Shown in pieces: positions 4,391-24,693 of a DNA stretch of 32,000 nucleotides (position 1 is the stretch's first letter; the number at the start of each line of letters is the position of its first letter). The stretch comes from Candidatus Electrothrix sp. GW3-4 (GTDB taxonomy: Bacteria > Desulfobacterota > Desulfobulbia > Desulfobulbales > Desulfobulbaceae). Made by a program: the position numbers and the translations under genes. The DNA is taken from positions 2,520,001 through 2,552,000 of the forward strand of contig NZ_CP147990.1 of the NCBI RefSeq assembly GCF_037902255.1. The letters are read 5' to 3'. The notes under the pieces are model-generated. The model was given only the letters and a program-made list of their open reading frames with translations. It searched no databases and was not told the origin of the DNA.

Positions 4391-4605
4391 ATTAAATCTT
4401 CCCTCCTTAACAATCCTGTAACACACAATCTTTGCTTACCATTGTTGGCCGTTCAAAAAAATGAGCAATCATCTCTGTTATTTCAGTTTATCGCCAGGCC
4501 ACCTCCCTCCTCTGGATTTTTATTGTCCCATCCTGTTAATGTGCTCCTCATCTAACATGGTGAACATTAATGGAGTTATACTCAAAAGTGGTGTTTAAGA
4601 GCGTC

Positions 4606-5788: not shown

Positions 5789-8700
5789 TTATTCTCCCGA
5801 CCATTTGTTAACAATACGAGACACCATATCTGCTATGGCTTTGCTCTTATAATCAAAAAAATGAATACCGTCATCTCCTCTGGCCGGGTCGGGCTTTCCT
5901 TGGGCATCAGTAAGCATTGTATGGGTCATGCCGGATGCATCGGCGACTTCACATCCCCACCAACCTCCGACAGGACTGCATGTTTTAACCATGTCAGCAT
6001 TCAGAGAAGTCAGAAACCGGTTAATTTTTCCGCTGATAACTCTGAAGTGATCTCCAAGTTTTGGCGTGTTAGCCACAGCGGGAACAGTGATGGTCACAAA
6101 AAGCACCTTCTTTTTGGGATCAAGTCGGCTAAAATCACTCATCAGGGACTTATATAGCCCTTCCCATCCCTCCAAAGCAGAGTCATACCGTTTCTGATAA
6201 TTTTTCGCCTTGATCGCCTCGTCAAACTCATTGTCCTGCCACAGACTGAGCGCATCATTCATTCCCATCATTCCTAAAATCGCAACCTTTTCATCGCATA
6301 ATGCTGTCGGATTTTTATATCTTTTTTTGATATCGCGTGTTCGTTGTCCGGGACCTCCGGCATAAAACCATAAGTTACCAGTGTTTTTTATAGTAAGATA
6401 TGCTGCGTATCCGGTAAAAAACTGTCCTGTATTCTTATTATGAGTACCAAAAGTCATTGAATCACCGAGAACAATAACTGAAACTTTCAACCCCAAATAA
6501 TCCCATCCATTAACCCCATCATTCCCCACAAACGCATAAAGATTGGTCCCACCATTTTCCCCAATAGGATCCCGACTCAACCACCGTCCAACTACAGGAG
6601 AATAATACCGATACCCGTAATAATACAGTCCCGTCGTATCATCGGCATACTTTGAGCTGAATCTGAACGGGTTGGTTTCCGCATAACTCCCCATAGCAGA
6701 AGTAAGTCCACCGAAAGGTGCATACTCGTAGGCAGCGGCGACAGATCCGTCCGAGCTGTCGAGAAGCTGGCCTACATTACCATTGGCATCGTAGAAATAG
6801 AGGTGAACCTTATCCGCCCCATGATCAATACGGGCAAGAATTCCACCGATACCGCCAGCCCCCTGAAGGCTCTGCGACAGATCAAGACCGTGGACATAGC
6901 TTGCTGTGGTTATACCGGTTCCGTCCAGTTCCTCGATCAGGTTCCAGCCGTCGTAGACAAAGAAGCGGGTTTCATCAGCTTGCCAGGTTGAGCCGTCCCA
7001 GGCAGTTGTAATTTTCCGTGCTCTGCGGCCCATGTAGTCGTAGAGAAATTCGAGTTTTTTATCACCAACAGCCGGTGTTTTCGGTGTGATTGTAATCAGC
7101 CGGTTTTCGCCGTTCCAAACATAAGTAAAAGTGCCGTCGTCGGTCAGGTTGCCGTCCTCGTCATAGGCCGGGCTGACCGCTGATCCGTTTGTATTCACGA
7201 ACGTATACTGATTGAGATCATTCGCGGTGTAAGCGGCTGAAGTCGTCGTGCCGGTGTCGATCATGAGCAGCTCATCCGGTACCGGAGGCAGAGCAGGATT
7301 TTCAAACACATCTCCTGTCATGGTCGCAGTTTTTCGACGCCCTATATTATCATAAAGATAATCATACTGTGAGACTGTGGCTGCGCCGTACTCGTTCTTC
7401 ACGCCGATCTTCAGGTTCCGATGGAGTTCGTAAGAGTTGGTTATCAGGCCACCTGAAGCAAAAGTGGTTGTGCGGAGAAGGTGCGAGTCTGGTACGCGGG
7501 CGTAGGTCACGTTGCCCGTGAAAGAATCGACATTCCAGGAAACACCGTTAAAACGTCCGGTGCTGTCATAGCCATAGGTGACAGCATAGCTGCTGTCTGT
7601 GCTGAAGCCGGTGTTTCTGCCAGGCACAGTGGTTGTGTCGTAGGAGCGAGTGAGGGTTCGGCTGATCAGCCCGGTGATGCTTTCGCTGTCCGGTTGAAGA
7701 GCAGAGTTATAGGCAAAAGTACGGGTCCCGACGGCATCGGTCACTGTACTGCGTTGTCCGGTGCGGTTGTAGGTAAACCCGATATCCGGGGTGGTGTCGG
7801 AATAATCAATGCCGGTCAATTCGCCGGTGTTCGGATCATAGCTGTAGGTGGTTGTGATAGCCGGAGTTCTGGCCCAGGTACGGGTATGGAGTCTGCCGCC
7901 TTCCAGATAGGTGTATTGTGTACTCTTATTTTGCGCATCTTCTTTGGACTCCAGCAGGCCAGTGGCCTCGTGGTAATGCCAGCGGGTAATATCAGCCAGC
8001 CCGTCGTTGGCAGACGGCCAGGTCGGGGAATCCCAGCCCTCACCACTCCGCCAGGTGTGCATGGCATCCATTCTGCCGTAGTTGTCGTATTCATAGCGGA
8101 CAGGCGTTGTTCCACCCCAGGTATGGGTGACCCGATCAAAGTTGTCATAGAGAAAGTAGACCGTCCGGTTCTCCGCATCGGTCACTGAAGTTTTCCTGCC
8201 CGTGATTGGATCGTAGCCGTACTCTGTGCGCTTCGTTGCTGCGTCCTCAGTGTAATCAACCTGCCCCAGGGTGTTGTAATGGGTGATGCTCTGGCCGGTG
8301 CGGGGATCGGTGACGCCGGTGCGTCGTTCCAGGGCGTCGTACTGGTAGGTGGTGGTGATGCCGGATTTGTCCGTGGAGGATTTCAGCAGGCCGTACAGGG
8401 ATTCCTGCACCGCATTCGTGTCCGAATCAAGATAATCCGTGATTTTAGTAATTGTATGAGAGGTCCGGTTGATATACCGCGACGAAACAGTCTCATTGTC
8501 GTGGATGTCCGTGCTCACGGTTTCGGCAATCAGGCCGCCTGCGCCCAGACCGGTCAGGCGAGTCCGGGTTTTGCCGGTGATTGTCTCGGCAGATGAACCG
8601 GATTCGGCAAAGATACTCTGTACCTGTTCCTGCCACCACGCACCGTTATCCAGGAGAAAGGCTGTGCTGCTGCCGCTGATCCGGTCGTCTGAGGCGGTTT

Positions 8701-9697
8701 CCAGGACCCCGCTGCTGTCGATATCCAGACCTGAACGGATTCTGTTGCCCAGTTCGTCGTACTGGTGCAGGGTGTCAGCCAGTCCCGGCGCAGTTGTTCG
8801 GATCAGCTGCCCTTTGTCGTTGTAAAAATTCTCCGAGACTTCCGTGCCCAGATAACCCGGCTTTTCGGTCTTCACTGTCCGTCCGGCCAGGTCTGTTGTG
8901 GTTTTCTCCCAGACCGGGGAAGCAGCGGTTCCGCTATGCACCTCTGTCCAGATGCTGCCGTCGCTGTTCACCCCGTAGCTGTAGAAGCGGGGCACAACGC
9001 CGCTGCCGGTCACGGATCTGGTTCGACCATCCAAATAGGTTTCTGTGATTTCGGTGATATTACCGGGCCGGGTTTCAGTAGTGATCCGACCTCCTGAAGC
9101 ATAATCGTAGTTGGTGGTCAGGTTCCTGCTGTCGGTCCGGCTGATGATCCTGCCGGACAGGTCGTACTGGCTGGAACTGCCCAGACTGAGACTGCCGGAG
9201 GACACGGTTTCGGTGAGCCGTCTGCCCGAAGCGTCGTAGGTATAATCAGTTACAACAGGCCCCTGTTCGGCTTCACGGCTTTGACTGATGAGTCGGTGGA
9301 GACCGTCGTACTCCGTAAAATCAGTTCGCACCCCGGTCGCGTTGATCTCGAAATTCTTCACGCAGCAAGACCAGTCTGTTTCAACAACAGTGCCGTCCGA
9401 GGATGTCCGGTCGGTCACTCTGCCGAAATCATCAAATTCCTGCGCTGTCCAGCTCACCGGCTGATAGCTGCTCCCGTCGTAGACCAGGGTCTGCTGAAAT
9501 ACCCCTTTACCCAGGCTGTCGCTGATGCTTTCTTCTTTACTCGTCTTCAGAGCAATGCCCGCTGGCGAACTCTCCGTGCCGTGTACCGTTGTCACCCGTT
9601 CGTCGCTACCGCTGCCCGGCGTGAAGACCTGCGTTGCCGGATCAAAGCCGCCCGTTTCATATGTCTGAGCACTGAGTTGGTCGTCAGGGGAGGAAAA
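5789..9697 (-). CDS. 5'-truncated Rhs/YD-repeat protein, module I, with an SGNH/GDSL-hydrolase C-terminal toxin domain
   Basis: YD repeats occur throughout, and the core end is [33 protein letters not shown]. The tip (5792..6487, 232 aa) has [16 protein letters not shown] and DDGIHF, which correspond to SGNH blocks I, III and V. The frame is open up to 9697, where a TGA inside the junction palindrome closes it. The first possible start is GTG 9595, with no RBS. Confidence 0.85.
   Translation of the reverse strand, partial: [1302 protein letters not shown]
7674..9397 (-). repeat. 1.7-kb rhs core segment near-identical to 15158..16881
   Basis: At offset 7484 the tracked plus-strand ORFs 8279..8596, 8469..8825, 8765..9097 and 8794..9048 have translations identical to their partners at +7484. 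I saw one mismatch by eye (9240 G versus 16724 A). Confidence 0.8.
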
Positions 9698-9722
9698 TCA
9701 ATTGAGCCTAGCCCTATTGATC
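9696..9722. repeat. junction palindrome copy 1 (AATCAATTGAGCCTAGCCCTATTGATC)
   Basis: A 27-bp imperfect dyad (AATCAAT...ATTGAT), 24 nt downstream of the module H immunity stop and directly abutting the first rhs-homologous codons of module I. Confidence 0.65.
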
Positions 9723-9746
9723 TTAATTAACCAGACTCTTTCAGAG

Positions 9747-10112
9747 TTAATCAGATAACTGACGCAATTCAGCATTTAAGTTAACCGCACCATCAGTAGT
9801 TTGATACCAGATGGTAATCTTGTTTCTGTCTTTTATCATATAAGCGACTTTGCCTCGCTGCGCTTTTGATATAATTTTTTTCGCTTTTTCAGAAAAACTT
9901 TTTTCTTTTTTCCATTTCACCTTATTAAGCGTCCCAACGACCTTTCCTTGATAAGTATCAAGGTACACTGTCCCATTTTCATCAATCTTTTCAAGCAACC
10001 CAGGATTATCAGTGAAGTCTATCTCGCTATGATAGCCGTAAAAAATTATTACAGATATAGCAATAATCAATACAACTATTATTAGCGACATCCTTTTGAT
10101 TAAAATCTTCAT
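9747..10112 (-). CDS. putative membrane-anchored immunity protein for the module H toxin
   Basis: A 121-aa ORF starting 19 nt after the rhs-H stop. It has an N-terminal hydrophobic helix (MSLIIVVLIIAISVIIFYGY) and is AT-rich. Its position downstream of a toxin tip supports the call. Confidence 0.6.
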   Translation of the reverse strand: MKILIKRMSLIIVVLIIAISVIIFYGYHSEIDFTDNPGLLEKIDENGTVYLDTYQGKVVGTLNKVKWKKEKSFSEKAKKIISKAQRGKVAYMIKDRNKITIWYQTTDGAVNLNAELRQLSD

Positions 10113-10131
10113 AATATCAAATCACTATAAA

Positions 10132-12999
10132 TTAATACAAAATATTATCCGATTTATTATACCAAGCCCTCCAGTTACTGATAGTGAACTGACCAGACTT
10201 GAACTTTTCCGCAAGCTCACGACATTTACACTCCCCTACATCAAATGCATTTTGAAGCTCAGTTCCTCTTCTGTTCCATGCCAAATCATGAGTACTGAAC
10301 CCATGATCACCAATGGGCGAATGTCCCCTAAAAGTGCCTTTCACTGCATCTCCCAGCTCTACAGCCGGACCAATCGCTACATCTGAAACCGTTTCCCCAA
10401 TATATGCTGAAACTGCCCCGGAAGCAAAAAAATGCATAACAGCATCCATCCTCCTGCCAAATTTATTAGTGGTATTTGTTGCCGGTGTTGCTCGTTTTAA
10501 CTGCCACTGATTGCTGCCACCATTCCACCAATACATAACACTTTCCACCCAATTCCTCACCCTCCTGAATCGTTTCGCCGCAACAGTTTCTTGTGAGGTG
10601 CCATGAGGTTGATTTTTAAAGTTAGTTGCTAATACATCGCCAAGCGCATCAAATACTTCTTCCATATCATCTTGGCAGTCCCAAGCCAATCTGAACAAAC
10701 TACCACTAGCTTGATCACTGGAGAAGTATAGCTCAATCAAATCCTTAAAGATCAAATCTGGATCAACTATTCCCGAATCAATCGCACTATTCGCTTCCTT
10801 AATATAATCGGCTTCACTAAGCTCTGATTGTCCCAAATAATCCCACCCATTAATCCCATCATTCCCCACAAACCCATACAGATTCAGTCCGCCATCTTCC
10901 CCAATGGGATCACGGCTCAACCATCGCCCAAGCTCAGGAGAATAATACCGATACCCATAATAATACAGCCCGGCCACATCATCAGCGTATTTGCTGGAAA
11001 ATCGAAACGGATTTACATCGGCATAACTCCCCATAGCAGAAGTCAATCCGCCAAAAGGCGCATACTCGTAAGCAGCGACGACAGAGCCGTCCGTAGAATC
11101 AAGCATCTGCCCCACATTGCCGTTAGCGTCATAAAAATACACATGCATCTTGCCAGCACTGTGATCAACCCTTGCCAGAATTCCCCCGATTCCTCCGGCA
11201 CCCTGAAGGCTCTGCGAAAGATCAAGGCCGTAGACATAACTGGCCGTGGTTGCTCCGGCCCCGTCCAGTTCCTCAATCAGGTTCCAGCCGTCATAGACAA
11301 AAAAACGGGTTTCATCAGATTGCCAAGTTGAGCCGTCCCAGGCGGTTGTAACTTTTCGTACCCGTCGGCCCATATAGTCATAGAGAAACTCAAGCTTCTC
11401 ATCCCCGACAGCCGGTGTTTTCGGGGTAATGGTGATGAGCCGGTTCTCTTCGTTCCAGCTATAGGTGAAGGTTCCGTCGTCGGTAAGGCCGCCGTCGTTA
11501 TCATACGCCGGACTGGCCGCTGCCCCGTTCGTCTCCACGGAAGTATACTGATTCAGATCATTCGCCGTGTAATCGACCGAGGTATAGGTTCCCGTGTTGA
11601 TGAGTTTCTGATCCGGCGGAACCGGCAGGGAGACGGAAAAGGCATCCCCGGAGGTCGTCATGGTTTTCCGACGCCCTATATTGTCATGGGTATAGTCGTA
11701 CTGTGAAATTGTTGTGGTGTTATACGTATTCAGTACAGAAGTTTTCAGGTTACGATGGGTTTCGTAGGAATAGCCTGTTGATGCACCGGAGCCAAAGGTT
11801 GCGCTTTTTAGCAGGTGTGAGTTCGGCTCGTACCCGTACTGCACAGTATCGCTGTGCGTGCCGACATTCCAGGAAACACCTCCGAAGCGTCCGGTGCTGT
11901 CATAGCCATAGGTGACAGCATAGCTGCTGTCTGTGCTGAAGCCGGTGTTTCTGCCGGGTACCCCGGTGGTTTCATAGGAACGGGTGAGCGTCCGGTTGAT
12001 CAGTCCTGTGATGCTTTCGCTGTCCGGTTGAAGAGCAGAGTTATAGGCAAAAGTACGGGTCCCGACGGCATCGGTCACTGTACTGCGTTGGCCAGTTCGA
12101 TTGTAGGTGAATCCGATATCCGGGGTGGTGTCGGAATAATCAATCCCGGTCAGCTCCCCGGTGTTCGGATCGTAGCTGTAGGTGGTTGTGATGGCCGGAA
12201 TTCTGGCCCAGGTGCGGGTATGCAGTCTGCCGCCTTCGAGATAGGTGTATTGCGTGCTCTTATTCTGCGCATCCTCCTTGCTCTCCAGCAAACCGGAAGC
12301 CTCGTGGTAATGCCAGCGGGTTATATCAGCCAGCCCGTCATTGGCAGACGGCCAGGTCGGAGACTCCCAGCCTTCGCCGCTGCGCCAGGTGTGCATGGCC
12401 TCCATTCTGCCGTAGTTGTCGTATTCATAGCGGACAGGCGTTGTTGCACCCCAGGTATGGGTGACCCGATCAAGGTCGTCATAGAGAAAGTAGACCGTCC
12501 GGTTTTCCGCATCGGTTACTGAAGTTTTCCTGCCCGTGACCGGATCGTAGTCGTACTCAGTGCGCTTCGTTGCTGCGTCCTCGCTGTAATCCACCTGGCC
12601 AAGGGCATTATAATGAGTGATACTCTGGCCGGTGCGGGGATCAGTGACGCCGATACGCCGTTCCAGGGCGTCGTACTGGAAGGTGGTCATGATGCCGGAT
12701 TTATCTGTGGAAGATTGCAACAGACCGTAGATGTTTTCCTGCTCCGCATTTGTCTCTGAATCAGGATAGTCTGTGATTTCCGTAACTGTATGTGAGGTCC
12801 GGTTGATATACCGCGACGAAACAGTCTCATTGCCGTGGATGTCCGTGCTCACGGTTTCGGCAATCAGGCCGCCTGCGCCCAGACCGGTCAGGCGAGTCCG
12901 GGTTTTGCCGGTGATTGTCTCGGCAGATGAACCGGATTCGGCAAAGATGCTTCGTTTTTTTTCGCTCCACCAGTGACCACCGGTCAAAGAAAACGCCAA
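10132..12999 (-). CDS. 5'-truncated Rhs/YD-repeat protein, module H, with an unassigned 231-aa toxin tip
   Basis: Core homology begins at ..FSLTGGHWW.. (equivalent to [10 protein letters not shown] in modules I, D and B). The core end is [28 protein letters not shown]. The tip spans 10135..10827. The only start candidate is TTG 12999, with no RBS. Confidence 0.85.
   Translation of the reverse strand: [955 protein letters not shown]
11039..11518 (-). repeat. about 480-bp rhs core segment near-identical to 20586..21065
   Basis: Offset 9547. The only difference seen is a CC/TT dinucleotide (about 11262 versus 20809). Confidence 0.7.
11384..11913 (-). repeat. 530-bp rhs core segment identical by eye to 31471..32000
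   Basis: Offset 20087. A line-by-line comparison showed no mismatch up to the window edge. Confidence 0.8.
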
Positions 13000-13026
13000 A
13001 TTAATTGAGATACGTCCCCATTTCCC
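12999..13026. repeat. degenerate junction palindrome copy (AATTAATTGAGATACGTCCCCATTTCCC)
   Basis: The left half (AAT[C/T]AAT[C/T]GAG) and the CCCC block match the other copies, but the right arm has decayed. It occupies the same position, between the module D immunity stop (13052) and the first rhs-H codons. Confidence 0.4.
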
Positions 13027-13051
13027 TCACAAAATGTTCAGACGGATCGCT

Positions 13052-13486
13052 CTAATTTCTAAATAAATAGACATAAACATTATTAGAGGAAGAATTTGTT
13101 AAGAAATATAAACTCTGCATAGTGTCTTTATCTCCAAAAGTTGATTTGTAAACTTGGTTGCTGTCAATATGTTCTTTAGGAATGTTTAATATTGACGATA
13201 TGCAATCGACAGCGAATAATAAATCGCTGTGATCTGACAACACCATATAGTCAGGAACAACAATATGGTTATCCTTTGCCTGTAAGTGCCAAGCTAAATC
13301 TTTTTTTTCGAAGGGAGCCGTTGAGTCGCTACCATCTGAAATAACAGTATAGTTCCCACCAATTTTATCTAGGATTGATTTCAGTGTATTTTCATTGCTG
13401 GTGTTACAAGATACTATACAACCTAACGACAACATTACAGTAACACAATATCTCATTAACGTTTTGTTAACTATTACAGTATGCAT
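13052..13486 (-). CDS. putative lipoprotein immunity protein for the module D toxin
   Basis: The preferred start is ATG 13486 (MHTVIVNKTLMRYCVTVMLSLGCIVSC...), which overlaps the rhs-D stop as TAATG. GGAGGT lies about 6 nt upstream. Lipobox-like LSLG/C. AT-rich. Confidence 0.65.
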   Translation of the reverse strand: MHTVIVNKTLMRYCVTVMLSLGCIVSCNTSNENTLKSILDKIGGNYTVISDGSDSTAPFEKKDLAWHLQAKDNHIVVPDYMVLSDHSDLLFAVDCISSILNIPKEHIDSNQVYKSTFGDKDTMQSLYFLTNSSSNNVYVYLFRN

Positions 13487-16400
13487 TATAAACCTCCACC
13501 TCCACAACAGGAAGAACCAGAGATAGGCCACTCGGCCATCCTGACTCTTCTTCCGACAAACATTTTTGTATAAGAAAGTATTTCTCCAGGATCGGCTCCG
13601 GTGTTCTCAAGAACGAAAACAGTAGCTGTGTATCTGAAGCAGCATTCATTATCCCAGGTTATATTAATACGTTCTGCTTGAATAACAAAATTGCCAATTT
13701 TAACATAACGCTCCCAAACACCTTGTGGCTTATCACCATACCTTTTCATGTTACTATAGACATCAACTTGTCCCTGTCGATCAATTATAGGAAGAATACT
13801 GGTTGGATGCGAGGATCGTTTCGAGCATGTTCTCTTGACAATTCTCTCGCCTAATAACTGCTTTGCCCCTGCACAAGTTTTGGGGAAACGATTCTCAAAC
13901 CATTCGGTATAATCTTTCTTATCACTTCCGCGCCAGCCAAAAGGATTGATTTGATCTCCCACGCCGGGTGACGAAAGCAATCCTAGTTTATCAATCCAGC
14001 TAACCGAATTATTTGAGATAAACCCATACAAATTAACCCCGCCTTCTTCCCCAATAGGATCTCTGCTCAACCAACGCCCAAGCTCAGGGGAATAGTACCG
14101 GTACCCATAATAATACAGCCCGGCCACATCATCAGCGTATTTTGTTGAGAACCGGAACGGATTGGTTTTCGCATAAGTCCCCATAGCGGAAGTCAGTCCG
14201 CCAAAGGGAGCGTACTCATAAGCAGCGACGACAGAGCCGTCCGAAGAATCAACCATCTGTCCGACATTACCGTTGGCATCGTAGAAATAGAGATGAGCTT
14301 TATCCGTTCCGTGGTCAACTCGTGCCAGAATCCCGCCGATACCGCCAGCTCCCTGCAAACTCTGCGAAAGATCAAACCCGTGAACATAACTCGCCGTAGT
14401 TGCTCCGGTTCCGTCCAGTTCCTCAATCAAATTCCAGCCGTCATAGACGAACAGGTTTGTCTCATCGGGTTGCCATGCCGTGCCATCCCAAGCGGTTGTG
14501 ACTTTCCGCACCCTGCGACCCATATAATCATAGAGAAAAGAAAGCTTTTTATCACCGACAGCAGGGTTTTTCGGAGTAACCGTTACAAGCCGATTTTCTC
14601 CGTTCCAAGTATAGATGAAGGTGCCGTCGTCAGTGAGACCACCGTCATCATCATAAGTGGGATTGACCGCTGAGTCGTCCGTATCCACGGAGGTGTACTG
14701 GTTCAGATCATTGGCAGTGTAATCGACCGAGGTATAGGTTCCCGTGTTGATGAGTTTTTGATCCGGCGGAACAGGCAGGGAGATGGAAAAGGCATCCCCG
14801 GAGGTCGTCATAGTTTTTCGACGCCCTATATCGTCATGCGTATAATCGTACTGTGAAATTGTTGCGGAGTTATAGGTATTCAGTACAGAGGTTTTCAGGT
14901 TACGATGGGGTTCATAGGAATAGCCTGTTGATGCACCGGTACCGAAGGTTGCGCTTTTCAGCAGGTGCGAGTTCGGCTCGTAGCCGTACTGCACAGTATC
15001 GCTGTGCGTACCGATATTCCAGGAAACACCTCCGAAGCGTCCGGTGCTGTCATAGCCATAGGTGACGGCATAGCTGCTGTCGGTGCTGAAGCCGGTGTTT
15101 CTGCCGACAACTCCGGCGGTTGCATAGGTGCGGGTGAGGATTCGGCTGATCAGTCCTGTGATGCTTTCGCTGTCCGGTTGAAGAGCAGAGTTATAGGCAA
15201 AAGTACGGGTCCCGACGGCATCGGTCACTGTACTGCGTTGTCCGGTGCGGTTGTAGGTAAACCCGATATCCGGGGTGGTGTCGGAATAATCAATGCCGGT
15301 CAATTCGCCGGTGTTCGGATCATAGCTGTAGGTGGTTGTGATAGCCGGAGTTCTGGCCCAGGTACGGGTATGGAGTCTGCCGCCTTCCAGATAGGTGTAT
15401 TGTGTACTCTTATTTTGCGCATCTTCTTTGGACTCCAGCAGGCCAGTGGCCTCGTGGTAATGCCAGCGGGTAATATCAGCCAGCCCGTCGTTGGCAGACG
15501 GCCAGGTCGGGGAATCCCAGCCCTCACCACTCCGCCAGGTGTGCATGGCATCCATTCTGCCGTAGTTGTCGTATTCATAGCGGACAGGCGTTGTTCCACC
15601 CCAGGTATGGGTGACCCGATCAAAGTTGTCATAGAGAAAGTAGACCGTCCGGTTCTCCGCATCGGTCACTGAAGTTTTCCTGCCCGTGATTGGATCGTAG
15701 CCGTACTCTGTGCGCTTCGTTGCTGCGTCCTCAGTGTAATCAACCTGCCCCAGGGTGTTGTAATGGGTGATGCTCTGGCCGGTGCGGGGATCGGTGACGC
15801 CGGTGCGTCGTTCCAGGGCGTCGTACTGGTAGGTGGTGGTGATGCCGGATTTGTCCGTGGAGGATTTCAGCAGGCCGTACAGGGATTCCTGCACCGCATT
15901 CGTGTCCGAATCAAGATAATCCGTGATTTTAGTAATTGTATGAGAGGTCCGGTTGATATACCGCGACGAAACAGTCTCATTGTCGTGGATGTCCGTGCTC
16001 ACGGTTTCGGCAATCAGGCCGCCTGCGCCCAGACCGGTCAGGCGAGTCCGGGTTTTGCCGGTGATTGTCTCGGCAGATGAACCGGATTCGGCAAAGATAC
16101 TCTGTACCTGTTCCTGCCACCACGCACCGTTATCCAGGAGAAAGGCTGTGCTGCTGCCGCTGATCCGGTCGTCTGAGGCGGTTTCCAGGACCCCGCTGCT
16201 GTCGATATCCAGACCTGAACGGATTCTGTTGCCCAGTTCGTCGTACTGGTGCAGGGTGTCAGCCAGTCCCGGCGCAGTTGTTCGGATCAGCTGCCCTTTG
16301 TCGTTGTAAAAATTCTCCGAGACTTCCGTGCCCAGATAACCCGGCTTTTCGGTCTTCACTGTCCGTCCGGCCAGGTCTGTTGTGGTTTTCTCCCAGACCG

Positions 16401-17277
16401 GGGAAGCAGCGGTTCCGCTATGCACCTCTGTCCAGATGCTGCCGTCGCTGTTCACCCCGTAGCTGTAGAAGCGGGGCACAACGCCGCTGCCGGTCACGGA
16501 TCTGGTTCGACCATCCAAATAGGTTTCTGTGATTTCGGTGATATTACCGGGCCGGGTTTCAGTAGTGATCCGACCTCCTGAAGCATAATCGTAGTTGGTG
16601 GTCAGGTTCCTGCTGTCGGTCCGGCTGATGATCCTGCCGGACAGGTCGTACTGGCTGGAACTGCCCAGACTGAGACTGCCGGAGGACACGGTTTCGGTGA
16701 GCCGTCTGCCCGAAGCGTCGTAGATATAATCAGTTACAACAGGCCCCTGTTCGGCTTCACGGCTTTGACTGATGAGTCGGTGGAGACCGTCGTACTCCGT
16801 AAAATCAGTTCGCACCCCGGTCGCGTTGATCTCGAAATTCTTCACGCAGCAAGACCAGTCTGTTTCAACAACAGTGCCGTCGGAGGCGGTACGCCGGGTC
16901 ATCCTGCCGAAATCATCAAATTCCTGCGCTGTCCAGCTCACCGGTTGATAAGCGCCGCCATCAAAGATCAGGGTGCGCTGAAATACTGTATTTCCCAGGT
17001 TGTCGCAAATACTCTCTTCCCTGGTTGTTTTCAGCGCAATACCGGCGGGTGAGCTCTCCGTACCATGCACCGTTGTCACCCGTTCGTCCGTGCCCGCACC
17101 CGGCGTGAAGACCTGGGTGCCGACATCAAAGCTCCCCTGCTCATAGGTGGTGGTTGTCAGCCGTCCGTCCGGTGAAAGCACGGACTTCAATCTGCCCGAG
17201 GAAAGAGAGCCATCTTCGGAATAATAGACCGTGACTGTGCGCAGGTTGACCGGATTACCAAAGGACGCGGAGCACAA
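13486..17277 (-). CDS. 5'-truncated Rhs/YD-repeat protein, module D, with an unassigned 163-aa toxin tip
   Basis: Core homology starts at ..[11 protein letters not shown].. and the core end is [28 protein letters not shown]. The tip spans 13489..13977. The only start candidate is TTG 17277, immediately preceded by an in-frame TGA from the junction palindrome. Confidence 0.85.
   Translation of the reverse strand: [1263 protein letters not shown]
15158..16881 (-). repeat. partner copy of 7674..9397
   Basis: See the partner entry. The flanks on both sides diverge into clearly different, though still homologous, core sequence. Confidence 0.8.
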
Positions 17278-17302
17278 TCAATCGAGTCTGACACCATTGA
17301 TT
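17276..17302. repeat. junction palindrome copy 2 (AATCAATCGAGTCTGACACCATTGATT)
   Basis: A 27-bp dyad with 7-bp outer arms (AATCAAT/ATTGATT) and an inner GTC.GAC, directly abutting the first rhs-D codons. Confidence 0.65.
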
Positions 17303-17404
17303 CTCTGTGAGTTTCTTCGGGCACCCTTGCCATCATCTACATATTCCCTCCTTCAGGGTTATGACTGGACTTTCACCAGCTAGTTCGTGACCATGCCGGT
17401 CGCA

Positions 17405-17848
17405 CACCGTGTGCCTCTGGCCGGAACGGTAATAGGTGAAGCCGATATCCGGGGTGGTGTCGGAATAGTCGATGCCGGTCAGTTCTCCGGTGTTGACGTC
17501 ATAACTGTAGGTGGTGACCAGGGAAGCGGAGTTTCGCGCCCAGGTCCGGGTGTAGAGCTTCCCGTTCTCTATATAGCTGTAAAGGGTTTGGTGATGCTGT
17601 GCGTCTTCTTTGGACTCCAGCAGACCGGTGGCCTCGTGGTAATGCCAACGGGTGATATCGGCCAGGGGATCATTGGCGGACGGCCAGAGCGGAGTATCCC
17701 AGCCCTCTCCTCCGCTCCGCCAGGTATACATGGTGTCCATTCTGCCGTAGTCGTCATACCCGTAACGGACAGGACTTGTTGCGCCCCAGGTGTGGGTAAC
17801 CCGGTCAAGGTCGTCATAGAGAAAATAAACCGTTCGGTTCTCCGTATT
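17405..17848 (-). pseudogene. internal Rhs/YD core fragment (module G)
   Basis: Translates as ..[49 protein letters not shown]...GQRHTV. It is homologous to 21600..22050 of module E. Homology ends near 17405 and there is no core terminus or tip. Confidence 0.8.
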
Positions 17849-17856
17849 TGACTTTT

Positions 17857-18186
17857 CTAGTAATTTCGCATTCTTTTAATGAACGGGAGCAGGTAGCTTA
17901 CATAACGGACATGGGCACCCGACAGCCTCAAATTATTGTAATAATATAAACGAATTTCCCAATAGCCAAACATATGGCTCTTACGCCAGACTTCCACCGG
18001 TTCGGAACTGGAAATTTTTTTTTGTTCCTGCATGTCTGAGGTGATTGCCAATTTATATACCTTGCTTCTCGGCATATCATTTTTAAGCATAGCCCAAGAT
18101 GCTGGAGGGGCAGGAAAAGTAACCCATATCAATGCGATACATCCTATTACCAACCCGGCTCCCCACAAGAAGATTTTTCTTTTCAT
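17857..18186 (-). CDS. putative membrane-anchored immunity protein for orphan toxin tip F
   Basis: A 109-aa ORF, 69 nt downstream of the tip F stop. It has an N-terminal hydrophobic segment (IFLWGAGLVIGCIALIWVTF) and is AT-rich. Confidence 0.55.
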   Translation of the reverse strand: MKRKIFLWGAGLVIGCIALIWVTFPAPPASWAMLKNDMPRSKVYKLAITSDMQEQKKISSSEPVEVWRKSHMFGYWEIRLYYYNNLRLSGAHVRYVSYLLPFIKRMRNY

Positions 18187-18255
18187 TTTATTGCTTAATT
18201 AAAATTCACGAGGAATCTTGCCAGCCTCACATCTCTTTCTGTGTCAGCATGTGAA

Positions 18256-18926
18256 TCACCCGCCTTCCAGGACACCGTGTAAGCTGTAATTAGGTGGTGA
18301 GTTTGGAACCCATTTTGCGTTATCAGACGGCTGGACATTATTCGGGTTGGCGTAATTAGTGCGACCATCTACTCCATAAAACTCAAAGTCGAAATAAGCT
18401 TTCCATACATCACGAAGAGACTCACCTGTAGATGCCTTTGCTGCACTGTTACAACCGCAACTTATTCCAATCGCATTTTTAGCAAATGCAGATGCAGCAA
18501 TAGCCCCACTTGTGATATCTGCACTGGTCAAAGACTCTGCTCCAGGATTTAAACCAAAATTGTTATTATACTGCAACATCAGTTCACCAGGTTTTCCATG
18601 ACCAAAATAAGTCCATCTTGAAATCCGCTCCCTTCCTTGTCTGTTTCCTCCTTGAGCATTTTTATTCATATTATTAATGAATTGGTTTTTATTGCCGAAC
18701 CACCGTATAAGAACGTTATGTTTAGCAGCTAACTTTACAATCTCAAGAGGATACGTAAGATCATCTCCTGTGTCCTCAATAGATCGTCCCTGATAAGATG
18801 AGACCTCAATATGCCACTCTATTATTTCACCCCTGCTTATTTTTGCTTTGCGTTTTATAATTTCTTTTTCTGCCGAGGTTATAAAATTTTTCCAGTTCCT
18901 GTCATGAGCAATAGGAAAGCCTATAA
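18256..18926 (-). pseudogene. toxin tip F, 5'-truncated by the IS3-family element; His-Gly...Gly-Cys-Asn (clan CD / C80-like) putative cysteine peptidase
   Basis: The frame is open from the IS boundary (18926) to the stop at 18256: ..IGFPIAHDRNWKNF...WTYFGHGKPGE...NAIGISCGCNSAAK... No rhs core is attached upstream. Tracked ORF 18256..18669 is only the part after an internal ATG. Confidence 0.7.
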
Positions 18927-19044
18927 TGGACCCCTATTCTTGGACAGCTATTTAAGGTAGATTTTTTTCTAAAAATGCTGAATGTATTTTGGTGCGCTTG
19001 GCACGAGTCCGAAATTCATACAGCCACTACCGGAGAATCTACGC

Positions 19045-19323
19045 ATGTCACGTAAAAGAAGAGTCCACTCAGCTGCATTTAAAGGAAAAGTTGCACTTGA
19101 AGCACTGAAAGAACTAAAGCCGATTAATGTACTGGCCTCCCAGTATGAGATTCAGCCAAACCAGATTAGCACCTGGAAAAAGCAGCTAAAAGAAGGTGTG
19201 TCCGAAATGTTCAGCAAAAAACGCGGTAGAGCCAAAGAGGATTCCAGGAAGGCTGAAAAGCGCTTATACGAAGAAATCGGTCGCCTAAAAATGGAGTTGG
19301 ACTGGCTTAAAAAAAAAGTCTGA
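19045..19323 (+). CDS. IS3-family transposase OrfA (HTH)
   Basis: The ATG at 19045 lies 9 nt after GGAG. The product MSRKRRVHSAAFKGKVALEALKE...ISTWKKQL...LKMELDWLKKK has the HTH plus leucine-zipper pattern of IS3 OrfA. Confidence 0.85.
   Translation: MSRKRRVHSAAFKGKVALEALKELKPINVLASQYEIQPNQISTWKKQLKEGVSEMFSKKRGRAKEDSRKAEKRLYEEIGRLKMELDWLKKKV
19309..19317 (+). promoter_or_regulatory. A9 slippery run at the orfA/orfB overlap
   Basis: The sequence is CTT AAA AAA AAA GTC TGA in the orfA frame. orfB lies in the +1 frame relative to orfA, not the usual -1 frame. The -1 frame hits TAA at 19347-19349. Confidence 0.6.
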
Positions 19324-19396
19324 GTCCTACTCAGATCCCATTGATTTAATTGACTCTAAGCACAAGTCAATCAGCATCCAGAGGCAATGTGACCTA

Positions 19397-20152
19397 TTGG
19401 GCATCAGTCGATCCCGCTATTACTACAAGCCTGCGGTCGAGAGCGAATTGAACCTCAAATTGATGCGAATTATCGATGAGATCTACACCGACTGCCCTTT
19501 TTACGGAAGCAGACGGATGGTCATCGAACTGGAACGGCGTTCTTTTCGTGTCAACAGAAAGCGGGTTCAACGGTTGATGCGCCTTATGGGGATTGAAGCG
19601 ATCTACCCGAAACCGAAGTTAAGTCAACGGAATATTGAACATAAGGTTTATCCATACCTTTTGCGGAACATCTTGATTGATCGTCCCAATCAGGTCTGGA
19701 GCACAGATATCACGTACATCCCGATGCAGAGCGGTTTCATGTATCTGACGGTAATTATTGACTGGTACAGCCGATACATCCTCAGTTGGCGTATATCCAA
19801 TACGATGGATAACGATTTTTGTGTCGAAGCTCTTGATGAAGCATTAACTCATGGATTACCCGATATTTTTAATACAGATCAGGGAGTGCAATTCACAAGC
19901 AAGCAGTTTACACAACGCCTGACAGATGTTGATGTAAAAATCAGCATGGACGGCAAGGGCCGAGCACTGGATAATATTTTTGTCGAGCGTCTTTGGCGTA
20001 CAGTAAAGTACGAAAATATCTACCTGAAAGACTATCGAAATGGCAATGAGTTATACCACGGTCTGGAAGAGTATTTTTCGTTTTATAATACCCGACGTCC
20101 TCATCAGTCTTTGGGGTACAGATCTCCTGAAGATATTCATTATTGCTCATGA
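19397..20152 (+). CDS. IS3-family transposase OrfB (DDE integrase core)
   Basis: Motifs include WSTDITYIP, FNTDQGVQFTS and DNIFVERLWRTVKYE (DDE triad context), plus YNTRRPHQSLG. The frame is open back to 19289 and overlaps the A9 run. The coordinates follow the tracked ORF, whose start is TTG. Confidence 0.85.
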   Translation: MGISRSRYYYKPAVESELNLKLMRIIDEIYTDCPFYGSRRMVIELERRSFRVNRKRVQRLMRLMGIEAIYPKPKLSQRNIEHKVYPYLLRNILIDRPNQVWSTDITYIPMQSGFMYLTVIIDWYSRYILSWRISNTMDNDFCVEALDEALTHGLPDIFNTDQGVQFTSKQFTQRLTDVDVKISMDGKGRALDNIFVERLWRTVKYENIYLKDYRNGNELYHGLEEYFSFYNTRRPHQSLGYRSPEDIHYCS

Positions 20153-20260
20153 GATACAGTCAAACAAATATAGGAGGAAATCACCAGATAAGAGAGTTTG
20201 TTGTTAGCCCGAAATCTATCTTAAATTATGCTAAATTTTGTGTTGACTATGGGGTCCACT

Positions 20261-22050
20261 TTAGCCCAATGCTCGGAGTATACGTGCTGGCAGCTCTAAT
20301 CCGGTCGCCCTGGGGCCTGCAATCTCCCACCCATGCCAAGCCGGGTTGCAGCCGCCGCTGACAACAACTTCATTCTGTCCTAACGGATCTATCGAGTTGA
20401 CCCCATTATTCCCCACAAACCCATACAAATTCAAACCACCCTCTTCACCAATCGGATCACGACTCAACCACCGGCCAAGCTCGGGGGAATAGTAGCGATA
20501 CCCATGATAATACAACCCGGCAACATCATCAGCGTATTTGCTAGAAAAGCGAAACGGATTAACATCGGCATAACTTCCCATAGCGGAAGTCAATCCGCCA
20601 AAAGGCGCATACTCGTAAGCAGCGACGACAGAGCCGTCCGTAGAATCAAGCATCTGCCCCACATTGCCGTTAGCGTCATAAAAATACACATGCATCTTGC
20701 CAGCACTGTGATCAACCCTTGCCAGAATTCCCCCGATTCCTCCGGCACCCTGAAGGCTCTGCGAAAGATCAAGGCCGTAGACATAACTGGCCGTGGTTGC
20801 TCCGGTTCCGTCCAGTTCCTCAATCAGGTTCCAGCCGTCATAGACAAAAAAACGGGTTTCATCAGATTGCCAAGTTGAGCCGTCCCAGGCGGTTGTAACT
20901 TTTCGTACCCGTCGGCCCATATAGTCATAGAGAAACTCAAGCTTCTCATCCCCGACAGCCGGTGTTTTCGGGGTAATGGTGATGAGCCGGTTCTCTTCGT
21001 TCCAGCTATAGGTGAAGGTTCCGTCGTCGGTAAGGCCGCCGTCGTTATCATACGCCGGACTGGCCGTAGCACCGTTTGTATTCACGGAGGTATACTGATT
21101 CAGATCATTCGCCGTGTAATCGACCGAGGTATACGTCCCCGTGTTGACCAGCTTTTGATCCGGCGGAACAGGCAGAGAGACGGAAAAGGCGTCCCCGGAG
21201 GTGGTCATGGAATTCCGGCGGCCTATATTATCGTGGGTGTAGTCGTACTGTGAAATTGTTGCGGAGTTATAGGTGTTCAGCACAGAGCTTTTCAGGTTAC
21301 GATGGGGTTCATAGGAATAGCCTGTTGATGCACCGGAGCCGAAGGTTGCGCTTTTCAGCAGGTGCGAGTTCGGCTCGTAGCCGTACTGCACGGTATCGCT
21401 GTGCGTGCCAATATTCCATGAAACTCCGTTGAAACGTCCGGTATTGTCGTATCCGTAGGTGACTGCGTAATTGCTGCCTGTGCTGAAGCCGGTGTTTCTG
21501 CCGGGAACATCGGTCGTGTCGTAGGCTCGGGCCAGGGTTCGGCTGATTAAAACCCGGTGAGGCTTTCGCTGTCCGGTTGAAGAGCAGTGTTATAGGCAAA
21601 GGTGCGAGTGCCGACCGCATCACTGACCGTGTGCCTCTGGCCGGAACGGTAATAGGTGAACCCGATATCCGGGGTGGTGTCGGAATAATCAATCCCGGTC
21701 AGCTCCCCGGTGTTCGGATCGTAGCTGTAGGTGGTTGTGATGGCCGGAATTCTGGCCCAGGTGCGGGTATGCAGTCTGCCGCCTTCGAGATAGGTGTACT
21801 GCGTACTCTTATTCTGCGCGTCTTCCTTGGACTCCAGCAGACCGGTGGCCTCGTGGTAATGCCAACGGGTGATATCAGCCAGTCCGTCATTGGCAGACGG
21901 CCAGGTCGGGGAATCCCAGCCTTCGCCGCTCCGCCAGGTATACATGGTATCCATTCTACCGTAGTCGTCATACCCGTAACGGATAGGCGATGTTGCGCCC
22001 CAAGTGTGGGTAACCCGATTGAGGTCGTCATAAAGATAATAAACGGTACG
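20261..22050 (-). pseudogene. 5'-truncated, frameshifted Rhs/YD module E with a 37-aa tip stub ending at the IS boundary
   Basis: The core runs from ..SRTVYYLYDDLNRV.. (about 22050), and a stop occurs at 21547 after ..DSESLTGF. Homology continues in another frame (LISRTLARAYD...VQYGYEPN...) to the core end [28 protein letters not shown]. A short tip follows (20264..20374), with its stop 2 nt from the IS end. Confidence 0.8.
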
Positions 22051-22063
22051 GGAGATGTGTTAT

Positions 22064-22534
22064 TTATTCCATCCCGTGTTGTTTATAGAACTCTATTAGT
22101 GGGGTTGTTGGTAAACGGCCATATTTACTTTTCTGTTCCAGTAAGCTATCTGTAATAATTTGCAAATAGCTATCTACAACTTGATTTCTATATGGGCCAG
22201 TATAAAAAGGCTTATAGTTCTTTTGATAATTTATAATACTTGCAAGTATATTTATTGGGGTACCACCCATATCCTTTAATAAAGGAGCTGTACTGCTAAC
22301 CTCACTTATCTTCCGGTAGAGTGACTCTTCGAGTTTGGAAATCACCTCAGTATTCCCACTTAAATTTTCACGACAATAACGTATTAACTCAATGTCGGAT
22401 TTTGCATGAAACAATAGCACGTTAGCAATTTTCAAATTAGTTATTCTAGATGCAGACTTCTTAGTAGTGCTAGCATAGCTTAAATTTGCATTAAAAATAA
22501 ATACAAGAAATAACAAGCATGTAAATTTTTTCAT
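22064..22534 (-). CDS. putative secreted immunity protein for the module C toxin
   Basis: A 156-aa ORF starting 8 nt after the rhs-C stop. It has a signal peptide (MKKFTCLLFLVFIFNANLSYAS) and is strongly AT-rich. Confidence 0.65.
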   Translation of the reverse strand: MKKFTCLLFLVFIFNANLSYASTTKKSASRITNLKIANVLLFHAKSDIELIRYCRENLSGNTEVISKLEESLYRKISEVSSTAPLLKDMGGTPINILASIINYQKNYKPFYTGPYRNQVVDSYLQIITDSLLEQKSKYGRLPTTPLIEFYKQHGME

Positions 22535-22542
22535 TTTACTCT

Positions 22543-24645
22543 CTAATTGTTCATGTTGATATAATATGTTGTCGAATGATTGAAAAGGTTCTGAAATGTA
22601 TCTTCATTTATTAAGTTAGGTTCAATCATCAATTGGATAGTCTCAGATTCAAGTGCTTGGTGGTCGAGTTGAGTGGAGTCATACAAAGACTTAAATTTTC
22701 CCAAAACTGGAATATCATTAGTCCAACCATATAAGAATTCAGCGTATTCTTTTAACCCTTCATTAAATCTGCTATTTGCCTTTTGAGCTGCAAAATCTTT
22801 AAAATTACTCCATAACTCGGCAAAACCACTCATGCCCGTTTCTTTAAACCTGCAAATGTTATAGTAATTATCAATACCATATTCGTAAAAGAAATTAAAC
22901 TCCACAGGGTAGAGGGTTGGCAATGCGTCATAAACAGTACGTGCTTTGATAGAAACACCAACAAAAAAGGAAATATATTCTCGCTTTAAAGAATCTGAAA
23001 GCCCATTGTAGGAAGATGCGCTAATTGTCTTTATATCTTGTAATACTCCACCATGTGTTGATGATAATCCTTTGGGATCAGTGTCATTAATACCATCATT
23101 TCTAACAAACCCATACAGATTCAATCCACCCTCTTCCCCAATCGGATCACGACTCAACCATCTTCCCGTATCGGGCGAATAATAACGGTACCCGTAATAA
23201 TACAGCCCCGTCGTATCATCGGCATACTTGGAACTGAATCTGAACGGATTAACCTCAGCATAACTCCCCGCAGCAGAAGTCAGGCCGCCAAAAGGTGCAT
23301 ATTCGTAGGCCGCAACAACGCTTCCGTCTGCAATATCAATCAGCTGACCGACATTACCGTTGGCATCGAAGAAATAGAGGTGAACCTTATCTGTTCCGTG
23401 GTCGATTCGAGCCAGAATACCTCCGATACCTCCGGCTCCCTGAATACTCTGCGACAGGTCAAGACCATGAACATAGCTGGCTGTGGTTGACCCAGCTCCG
23501 TCCAATTCCTCAATCATATTCCAGCCGTCGTAGACGAAGAGGGCTGTCTCATCGGGTTGCCAAGTCGAGCCATCCCAGGTAGTTGTAATTTTCCGCACTC
23601 TCCGGCCCATGTAATCATAGAGCAGCTCAATTTTTTTATCGCCGCTGACCGGATTCTTGGGTGTAGCCGAGGCAAGGCGGTTTTCGCCGTTCCAGACATA
23701 AGTCAACCGAGCGTCGTCCGTCAGGTTACCATCTTCGTCATGGGTAGGATTGATAACACTTCCGTCGTTATTCACCTCATTGTATTGATTTAGACTGTTG
23801 GGAGTATAGCTTACAGAGGTATAGGTATCAGTGTTGATCAAATTTTGATCCGGCGGAACAGGCAGAGAGACGGAAAATGCCTCTCCTGTCATGGTCGCCG
23901 AGGTGCGACGCCCTATATTGTCATAAACATAGTCATACTGAGAAACAGTGGATGAACCGTACTCGTTTTTCACGCCGATTCTCAGATTACGGTTCGGTTC
24001 ATAGGAGTTGGTAATCACTCCTCCCGATGCAAAAGTGGTTGTGTGGAGCAGATGCGAGTCAGGTACGCGGGCGTAGGTCGCACTATCGGAGTGGGTGCCG
24101 ACATTCCAGGAAACACCTCCAAAGCGTCCGGTGTTGTCATAGCCGTAGGTAACGGCATAGCTGCTGTCCGTGTTGAAACCGGTGTTTCTGCCGGGCACAG
24201 TGGTTGTGTCGTATGAACGGGTAATCGTCCGGCTGATCAGTCCGGTGAGGGTTTCGGTCTCCGGTTGGAGAGCAGTATTGTAAGTGAAGCTGCGGCTGCC
24301 CACTGCATCGGTCACTGTACTGCGCTGCCCGGTGCGATTGTAGGTAAACCCGATATCCGGGGTGGTGTCGGAATAGTCGATACCGGTCAGTTCGCCGTTA
24401 TTTGGATCGTAGCTGTAGGTGGTGACCAGCGAAGCCGAGTTCCGTGCCCAGATCCGGGTATGGAGTCTGCCTCCTTCAAAATAGGTGTACTGCGCCTGTT
24501 GGCTCTGCGCATCTTCCTTGGACTCCAGCAGGCCGGTGGCCTCGTGGTAATGCCAGCGGGTTATATCAGCCAGTCCGTCATTGGCAGACGGCCAAGTCGG
24601 AGAATCCCAGCCCTCGCCGCTCCGCCAGGTATGCATGACATCCAT
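22543..24645 (-). CDS. 5'-truncated Rhs/YD-repeat protein, module C, with an unassigned 173-aa toxin tip
   Basis: Core homology starts at ..NDYGRMDVMHTW.., and the frame opens at 24663 right after a TAG. The core end is [28 protein letters not shown]. The tip spans 22546..23064. ATG 24645 is the first start and has no clear RBS. Confidence 0.8.
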   Translation of the reverse strand: [700 protein letters not shown]

Positions 24646-24666
24646 TCTGCCGTAATCGTTATGCTA

Positions 24667-24693
24667 AATCAATCGAGTCCGACCCCGTTGATT
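24667..24693. repeat. junction palindrome copy 3 (AATCAATCGAGTCCGACCCCGTTGATT)
   Basis: A 27-bp dyad, 6 nt downstream of the module B immunity stop (24700-24702) and immediately upstream of the first rhs-C codons. Confidence 0.65.

Follow-up and report, generated by a model that had tools for sequence, protein, structure and literature searches.

The 32,000-nucleotide (nt) stretch of DNA analysed here, hereafter the window, comes from the cable bacterium Candidatus Electrothrix sp. GW3-4 (contig NZ_CP147990.1 of assembly GCF_037902255.1, positions 2,520,001 to 2,552,000 of the forward strand) and is the sole GW3-4 DNA behind the genomic results described below. It harbors an array of 5'-truncated rhs genes, several of which are directly abutted by a short imperfect palindrome of 27 nt. 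This motif is very probably a repeat resembling the repetitive extragenic palindromic (REP) sequences, namely a terminal-inverted-repeat (TIR) element that belongs with a family of Y1 transposases of the REP-associated tyrosine transposase (RAYT)/TIRYT type. Its place in the array is best explained by an ordinary REP/TIR repeat that anchors deletions in the adjacent DNA, a reading given a probability of about 0.6.

Eight co-oriented copies of the rhs core lie on the minus strand of the window, as mapped by Pfam matches and self-BLAST, and the genes relevant here are all encoded on that strand. Each core runs into a different C-terminal region, usually followed by a small open reading frame (ORF) with no family match. 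These small ORFs are presumed by position alone to be immunity genes, and no Pfam or NCBIfam match was found for them. The families recognized among the window ORFs are Rhs, a beta-helix protein, a GDSL-lipase-like domain and an IS3 DDE transposase. In minus-strand order, the 5'-truncated cores start near 29763, 24662, 22051, 17847, 17270, 12951-12998, 9690 and 5259. The features that adjoin the palindrome are, in the same order:

24700..25278, minus strand: presumed immunity ORF of 192 amino acids (aa) upstream of copy 3, assigned by position
24667..24693, minus strand: repeat copy 3, AATCAACGGGGTCGGACTCGATTGATT, with 2 mismatches to the family consensus (nhmmer 31.3 bits, E = 5e-9)
22543..24662, minus strand: 5'-truncated rhs, 700-aa ORF, starting about 4 nt after copy 3 (self-BLAST)
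17333..17847, minus strand: short internal rhs core fragment with its ORF end, upstream of copy 2, with no immunity gene (self-BLAST)
17276..17302, minus strand: repeat copy 2, AATCAATGGTGTCAGACTCGATTGATT, with 1 mismatch to the consensus (nhmmer 31.8 bits, E = 4e-9)
13486..17270, minus strand: 5'-truncated rhs, 1263-aa ORF, starting about 5 nt after copy 2 (self-BLAST)
13052..13531, minus strand: presumed immunity ORF of 159 aa upstream of the decayed copy 4, with no family match
12999..13026, minus strand: probable decayed copy 4, right arm CTCAATTAATTT and ATGGGG alone preserved, plus one extra base, assigned by position
10132..12998, minus strand: 5'-truncated rhs, 955-aa ORF, downstream of the decayed copy 4 (self-BLAST)
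9747..10112, minus strand: presumed immunity ORF of 121 aa upstream of copy 1, with no family match
9696..9722, minus strand: repeat copy 1, GATCAATAGGGCTAGGCTCAATTGATT, diverged, 6 mismatches to the consensus (nhmmer 16.1 bits, E = 3e-4)
5789..9695, minus strand: 5'-truncated rhs, C-terminal domain GDSL-lipase-like, core homology reaching the edge of copy 1 (self-BLAST)

A preliminary description of this DNA, made from its letters alone, had reported three copies of the palindrome and a decayed fourth at the boundaries between immunity genes and truncated rhs cores. The three copies were confirmed in position and sequence, and the degenerate pattern given for them matches exactly these three sites in the window, with no match in 100 shuffles. 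The pairs between positions i and 28-i, recounted by hand, number 9 of 13 in copy 1, 11 of 13 in copy 2 and 10 of 13 in copy 3, in agreement with the dyad symmetry that had been claimed. All copies show the orientation of the family consensus on the rhs coding (minus) strand. Copy 3 lies 6 nt past the stop of the ORF at 24700-25278, copy 1 lies 24 nt past that of ORF 9747-10112, and copy 4 about 25 nt past that of ORF 13052-13531; for copy 2, the distance is 30 nt from the stop of ORF 17333-17740 and 103 nt from where an rhs fragment ends. Homology to the rhs core begins 0-8 nt after each copy and at four different core positions, which bears out the abutment noted before. The in-frame TGA (within ATTGATT) said to close the frame of the downstream rhs is present in copies 1 and 2; in the case of copy 3, a TAG immediately following the motif provides the in-frame stop.

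For the site at 12999-13026, the right arm CTCAATTAATTT is identical to the corresponding arm of copy 1 at 11 of 12 positions, yet an nhmmer profile built from 204 family members does not recover it in the window (E > 50). It is accepted as a probable fourth copy because it is positioned at an equivalent junction. With this copy counted, the repeat occupies four of the eight immunity/truncated-rhs junctions in the window. No copy was detected, by inspection or with the family profile, at the junctions near 29763, 22051, 17847 and 5259, and since these four are truncated without it, the repeat is not needed for truncation. A weak profile match at 20391-20407 of the minus strand (6.6 bits, E = 0.34) falls within the coding DNA of an rhs core end (GNNGVNSIDPLG: AATAATGGGGTCAACTCGATAGAT) and is probably a chance match; a microhomology between rhs ends and the repeat is possible.

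The distribution of the repeat was surveyed by scanning one genome per species with the relaxed pattern ATCAAYNGNGNNNGNCTCRATTGATT, for which about 4 chance hits were estimated. The scan yielded at least 120 loci with more than 200 copies in about 100 species, and the hosts include Betaproteobacteria (Nitrosospira, Gallionella, Methylophilaceae), Zetaproteobacteria (Mariprofundaceae), Desulfobulbaceae (Candidatus Electrothrix) and, among the Gammaproteobacteria, Methylococcaceae, Thiotrichaceae, Legionella and Hydrogenovibrio. The family consensus is (A)AATCAATGGGGTCAGACTCGATTGATT(T), 27-29 nt in length. Among the loci listed, the positions left free by the pattern are 80-97% conserved and the flanks are not conserved, and the exact consensus 27-mer makes up 58 of the 209 copies listed. 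The only trait of the flanks is an A before and a T after the repeat, within A-rich/T-rich surroundings, and no further target-site motif was found there. Copies are arranged as singlets, in tandem clusters or in pairs, the latter being either convergent inverted doublets with a spacing of about 43 nt or gene-flanking pairs with a spacing of 772-825 nt. About 82% of them lie outside ORFs of at least 100 aa, with an enrichment within 30 nt of ORF stops on either side, and several repeat loci per genome occur in 13 metagenome-assembled genomes among the matches listed. The 27-mer is identical across dozens of species and at least four classes, and the associated transposases described below are about 60-87% identical; this conservation across classes may be partly due to the 3' copy of the element encoding the last residues of the protein. 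In the literature library that was searched, the motif sequence gave chance primer matches only, and none of the papers there contains it.

As single-stranded DNA (ssDNA), the consensus is predicted to fold into a hairpin with stems of 8 bp and 4 bp, separated by a G.G mismatch and closed by a 3-nt loop (-5.5 kcal/mol, z = -3.4), and the window copies at -4.1 to -4.6 kcal/mol; the stem is AT-rich and weak. The compensatory change proposed for pair 12/16 was not sustained, with the C-G of copy 1 being a single event and the sole C-G among 131 distinct family members. Covariation across these members does not exceed that of shuffled controls, so a covariation-supported structure is ruled out, and no Rfam match was obtained in the window. 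The earlier judgement that the motif makes a poor intrinsic terminator proved correct: the terminator-like sites in the window overlap no copy and the stem is AT-rich, and a terminator is thus ruled out at every copy.

What ties the family to an enzyme is a gene that the repeat flanks. In 29 of the 120 loci listed, the repeat adjoins a complete or fragmentary Y1 transposase gene, and at one of them (L030) a 236-aa ORF lies between two inverted copies. The upstream copy stands 50-100 nt before the transposase start codon, and the downstream inverted copy overlaps the gene end and supplies its last codons and stop (...INRV-stop). The encoded protein of about 237 aa scores 82 bits against the NCBIfam model NF047646 for REP-associated tyrosine transposase (cutoff 80) and matches Pfam Y1_Tnp (PF01797) at 1e-14 to 1e-16. 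Its Y1 domain spans residues 15-123 and is followed by a C-terminal extension of about 100 aa. The transposase family comprises at least 7,995 clusters at E <= 1e-20, and no relative of it was found in the PDB. The closest transposases listed come from E. aarhusensis, E. communis (fragments), E. rattekaaiensis, E. aestuarii and strains AX5 and AR4.

Under the names TIRtron and TIRYT, Di Nocera et al. (2013, PMC3733652) described RAYT-like genes lying between terminal inverted repeats with the common motif GGGGWSAS, the repeat families occurring as singles, dimers and clusters. Quentin et al. (2018, PMC6006769) equate the TIRYTs with TnpAY1 subclass 2.1, long proteins with a C-terminal extension similar to the helix-turn-helix domains Bac_DnaA_C, HTH_23 and HTH_28, near whose genes no REP-like sequences were found. 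The two groups are probably the same. Considering that GGGGTCAG at consensus positions 8-15 fits GGGGWSAS and that an extension of about 100 aa follows the Y1 domain, the TIRtron/TIRYT is the closest described kind. As in that kind, the Y1/HUH transposase is longer than classical RAYTs, the inverted repeats flank the gene with the 3' repeat overlapping its end, and the repeat families are moderately abundant. The present repeat differs in being itself a near-perfect, REP-like palindrome of 27-29 nt that is almost invariant across several bacterial classes, and in the lack of a detectable helix-turn-helix Pfam domain in the extension, for which reason the subclass assignment is tentative.

The resemblance to the classical REP, REPIN and BIME elements with their RAYT (TnpAREP) in E. 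coli and Pseudomonas (PMC2817692, PMC3116915, PMC3333891, PMC8266576) is also extensive. The repeat is a short extragenic imperfect palindrome with a stem mismatch and a length within the usual 20-40 nt, its inverted copies flank a Y1 transposase gene as in a REPtron and otherwise form singlets, inverted doublets and clusters, and the transposase passes the REP-associated cutoff. Unlike classical REPs, which are species-specific, the repeat sequence is common to several classes; its stem is AT-rich and weak, and its copy number looks lower, with several copies per genome seen among the matches listed. In further contrast to classical single-copy RAYTs, the transposase gene is multi-copy in some genomes (loci L206 and L106). 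E. rattekaaiensis holds two transposase loci 9.5 kb apart (L206: 356-2607 and 9700-10728), which makes the gene multi-copy in Electrothrix, and at one of the two, a DDE-type insertion sequence has shortened the transposase to 151 aa, with the repeats still at both ends. At a solitary-repeat locus of E. marina (L082: 852-1454, minus strand), a second and different Y1-transposase-like protein (MKYNPDIHHRRSIRLRNYDYSQ...) is encoded beside toxin-antitoxin genes, so Electrothrix genomes may carry more than one Y1 family.

Within Electrothrix, the transposase and the repeats are both present in E. aarhusensis, E. aestuarii and E. rattekaaiensis, the repeats flanking the transposase gene at loci L038/L203, L204, L206 and L207. 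E. marina contains scattered copies, and solitary copies in E. marina and E. aarhusensis adjoin various unrelated genes, among them toxin-antitoxin genes and a putative glutamine synthetase gene. Rhs genes are nearby in only about 8 of the 123 repeat-bearing loci. The 79 related rhs loci from metagenomes (590 kb, up to 58% identity to the Rhs of the window) contain no copy by mismatch scan or profile, which rules out the repeat as a trait of rhs arrays in general. RAYT and rhs are both mentioned in one preprint, as separate subjects.

These results leave the preliminary description partly supported. Its palindrome is real, discrete and of a protein-recognized type. Its proposal of a core site for a cassette-specific recombinase fares poorly: the scatter that it had itself named as grounds for refutation is seen in relatives, where the same 27-mer lies in unrelated, mostly intergenic places in about 100 species, other Electrothrix included, and the cassette boundaries of the related rhs loci are devoid of it. 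The search for a partner enzyme came out in two ways, with the repeat linked to an HUH nuclease elsewhere, and no tyrosine or serine recombinase among the window ORFs, where the IS3 DDE transposase is the only enzyme of this sort. An imperfect palindrome at a gene cassette boundary recalls integron attC sites, Xer-type pdif modules and IS91/ISCR elements, and the repeat is probably recognized as folded ssDNA, as attC is, or by an HUH enzyme, as in IS91. Unlike in those systems, no integrase, Xer-type arrangement or IS91-type gene is present, half of the boundaries lack the motif, the motif is common in cassette-free places, and there is no sequence similarity to the attC R'/R'' boxes or to dif. 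With four of eight junctions occupied and unrelated contexts common, the motif lacks the distribution of an attC-like site and is not a recombinase core site specific to cassettes.

Truncations anchored at the repeat are observed in relatives of the window. At the related locus L205, the rhs cores are 79-82% identical to those of the window, and a degenerate repeat copy (19 bits) abuts a truncated core at the same codon as copy 1, the BLAST alignment with the window spanning the repeat/core junction at 78.8% identity. Upstream of this copy there are a broken pdxJ start and an unrelated fragment in place of an immunity gene, and the toxin domain also differs. Because both the upstream flank and the toxin differ, the repeat/core junction is older than either change and travels with the downstream rhs. 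The earlier notion that the motif travels with the cassette boundary rather than with the core thus survives in one part, the repeat staying at the rhs boundary, and fails in the other, in that the repeat is joined to the truncated rhs that follows it, at the 5' end of that gene. Travel with the upstream immunity gene is ruled out by the unrelated upstream genes at L205 and L203. As a further observation at L205, the ORF at 9332-9760 starts like pdxJ (MPQLAINVDHIATIRQAR) and continues into unrelated sequence, with a ybeY-like gene before it; it seems that the rhs island landed in or beside a housekeeping gene, or that the contig is chimeric.

In E. aarhusensis (L203), a repeat that follows an unrelated AAA-ATPase-like gene is separated by 8 nt from a truncated rhs core end of about 45 codons, and a repeat-flanked transposase gene is located only 700 nt further on. 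A unit of rhs end, toxin and small ORF is enclosed between two repeats right beside the transposase gene. A second E. aarhusensis assembly (L207) is 98.3-99.5% identical in the flanks and lacks 253 nt present in L203 (L203: 9010-9290 versus L207: 9294-9321). The gap begins at the last base of the repeat, and the missing piece encodes the rhs core end in frame with the following toxin domain, so the difference is most simply a deletion in L207 and would represent a natural repeat-anchored deletion. The transposase gene itself is cut in the same manner. At least seven loci hold remnants of it whose truncated end touches a repeat:

L074: transposase remnant, residues 192-236
L105: transposase remnant, residues 184-236
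L120: transposase remnant, residues 213-238
L077: transposase remnant, residues 1-24
L088: transposase remnant, residues 1-15
L106: transposase remnant, residues 1-152
L102: transposase remnant, residues 24-149

Together with L205, L203 and L207, these remnants demonstrate that the repeats repeatedly abut genes cut at arbitrary points. Repeat pairs were also seen to enclose nested transposase remnants of 15-152 codons from either end of the gene (L074, L105, L120, L060, L073, L077, L088, L106 and L102), and the spacers between paired repeats form a series from about 780 nt down to about 30 nt. Such a series resembles successive stages by which a flanked gene shrinks to a bare repeat doublet.

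Based on these observations, a simple course of events can be proposed for the window. As with other REPs, repeat copies are dispersed over extragenic sites, as a rule close behind the 3' end of a gene, presumably through the cognate Y1 enzyme, and the copies in the window would have lodged a few nt after the closing gene of a toxin/immunity module, the usual type of site for the family. The DNA beside a copy would tend to be lost in one-sided deletions anchored at the repeat edge, and such deletions would take the start of the next rhs along with anything in between. The product would be a stop, a short spacer, the repeat and a truncated rhs core, with the codon of entry into the core differing between junctions. 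Nicking and rejoining by the transposase at the hairpin foot, or recombination between two copies, may be the cause. Y1 transposases (IS200/IS605, TnpAREP) cleave ssDNA at a hairpin foot and then join the resulting ends again, which makes an enzyme-driven deletion plausible. For the truncated junctions of the window in particular, an origin by repeat-anchored deletion is put at even odds.

Several points weigh against this proposal or against the assignment of the repeat. Recombination between copies or hairpin-induced slippage would yield the same products as the enzyme, and half of the truncated rhs junctions in the window have no repeat. The polarity of the deletions is mixed, the lost DNA being 3' of the consensus-oriented repeat in the window and at L074 and 5' of it in L203/L207 and at L106, and the difference between L203 and L207 comes from two metagenome-derived assemblies. 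Canonical REPs have GT[AG]G at the hairpin foot (PMC6006769), in contrast to the present repeat, where neither GTAG nor GTGG is found at that place in the consensus of 138-209 copies and their flanks. In the C-terminal extension of the transposase, no helix-turn-helix Pfam family is matched even at E <= 10. No transposase remnant was found in the window, and proteins of GW3-4 are missing both from the top 120 homologues of the transposase and from the 15 listed members of its cluster; for GW3-4 itself, a resident transposase gene and scattered copies would be extrapolated from its relatives.

The array otherwise has the features of Rhs orphan arrays, which reportedly arise by C-terminal displacement, as is said to have been described by Jackson et al. 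in 2009 and Koskiniemi et al. in 2014. It contains RHS_repeat matches, eight cores in the self-BLAST map and the core end DPIGEDGG (DPxGx motif), and its co-oriented core fragments, 5'-truncated at different positions, each carry their own variable toxin domain and a small downstream ORF. To our knowledge, the published displacement model includes no junction repeat, unlike the window, where half of the junctions carry a transposase-associated repeat abutting the truncated core. The array and its orphans may have formed first by displacement, with the repeats entering the non-coding gaps later and harmlessly. Such a late passive insertion is unlikely, though it is the strongest of the alternatives. 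It agrees with the repeat-free truncated junctions, with the mostly extragenic places of the family near gene ends elsewhere and with the spacers, which after subtraction of the repeat are of similar size, measuring about 10-55 nt at repeat-bearing junctions and about 10-87 nt at repeat-free ones. However, all four copies lie 0-8 nt from the first rhs-homologous base instead of at varied places within the gaps, and none is found in the more than 20 kb of orphan rhs bodies in the window, which are probably unselected. Moreover, the repeat stays with the truncated rhs next to unrelated upstream genes at L205 and L203, and rhs DNA was lost from the repeat edge between L203 and L207.

Less probable still is an updated form of the recombination-site idea, in which the repeat would be the downstream crossover point for the capture of an rhs tip and its immunity gene. 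An incoming stretch of core, toxin, immunity gene and repeat would recombine by homology in the core and then at a resident repeat, by way of the Y1 transposase or short homology, so that repeats would bound mobile rhs cassettes in an integron-like way. The direct orientation of the window copies, between which lie units made up of a truncated rhs, a toxin domain and an immunity gene, would suit this scheme, as would the enclosed rhs-end/toxin/small-ORF unit of E. aarhusensis and the repeats that follow Rhs or immunity ORFs by 30-260 nt at L003, L095, L112 and L119. The scheme is opposed by the repeat-free half of the junctions, by the 79 related rhs loci devoid of the repeat and by the fact that most copies in other genomes have no relation to rhs. 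In addition, neither a circular or excised form nor a cassette common to two repeat-bounded sites was seen, and the repeat pair of E. aarhusensis is divergent, in contrast to the convergent doublets of the family.

In E. coli, a REP no more than about 15 nt away from a stop codon can reduce expression, and REPs can stabilize the upstream mRNA. These effects, the placement of copies 6-30 nt past stop codons and the better folding of the motif than of shuffled sequence would favor a regulatory hairpin or operator (a terminator, a 3'-end stabilizer, a ribosome-stalling REP or a dimeric-regulator site insulating silent orphans), which is nevertheless very improbable, as the terminator-like sites coincide with no copy, the stem is AT-rich and weak, covariation and an Rfam match are absent, the contact with truncated genes and the same 27-mer around a transposase gene are left unexplained, and such a role could be a secondary effect of a REP and not a rival origin.

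Several other features surround the repeats in the window. An IS3-family element (orfA and orfB, 18982-20152 of the plus strand, flanks about 18900-20260) interrupts the array just after the truncated rhs at 22051-20261, whose frame is disrupted (ORFs 21547-21954 and 20261-21391). The rhs ending at 25265 extends upstream to about 29763 with stop codons or frameshifts near 29310 and 29075, and its junction with the preceding ORF (29764-30174) is free of the repeat. At the repeat-free junctions 22051 and 17847 (minus strand), the core is entered within about 15 nt of the same codon (..TVYFLYDDLDRVTHTW..) and the upstream ORFs differ, which suggests a preferred breakpoint or a duplicated junction. 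Directly downstream of the array, a protein of 1239 aa with right-handed beta-helix repeats is encoded at 707-4426 on the minus strand. Short-read contigs of three runs match the window at 100% identity, and nothing similar to it was found in E. coli genomes and plasmids.

A more far-reaching possibility is that the Y1 transposase and the 27-nt repeat actively remodel polymorphic-toxin loci in cable bacteria, which is considered improbable. The enzyme would then cut the repeats after immunity genes and rejoin the ends inside a neighboring rhs or at other repeats. If this were true, rhs toxin/immunity cassettes would be truncated, silenced, excised or shuffled by it, a domesticated REP system would drive the turnover of the toxin repertoire, and the repeat-bounded units would be mobilizable cassettes.

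On the explanation preferred here, that of an ordinary REP/TIR repeat anchoring adjacent deletions, the general picture of REPs and of Rhs systems is unchanged. An apparent rhs-specific recombination signal can now be recognized as a Y1-family REP/TIR repeat, and a wrong annotation is avoided. The repeat is unusual in being almost invariant across classes where classical REPs are species-specific, and the transposases of probable TIRYT/subclass 2.1 type do have a palindromic, REP-like partner, which one survey had not detected. Finally, the deletion that distinguishes the two E. aarhusensis assemblies and the nested transposase remnants bear on the origin of REP doublets and on the trimming of rhs orphan arrays.

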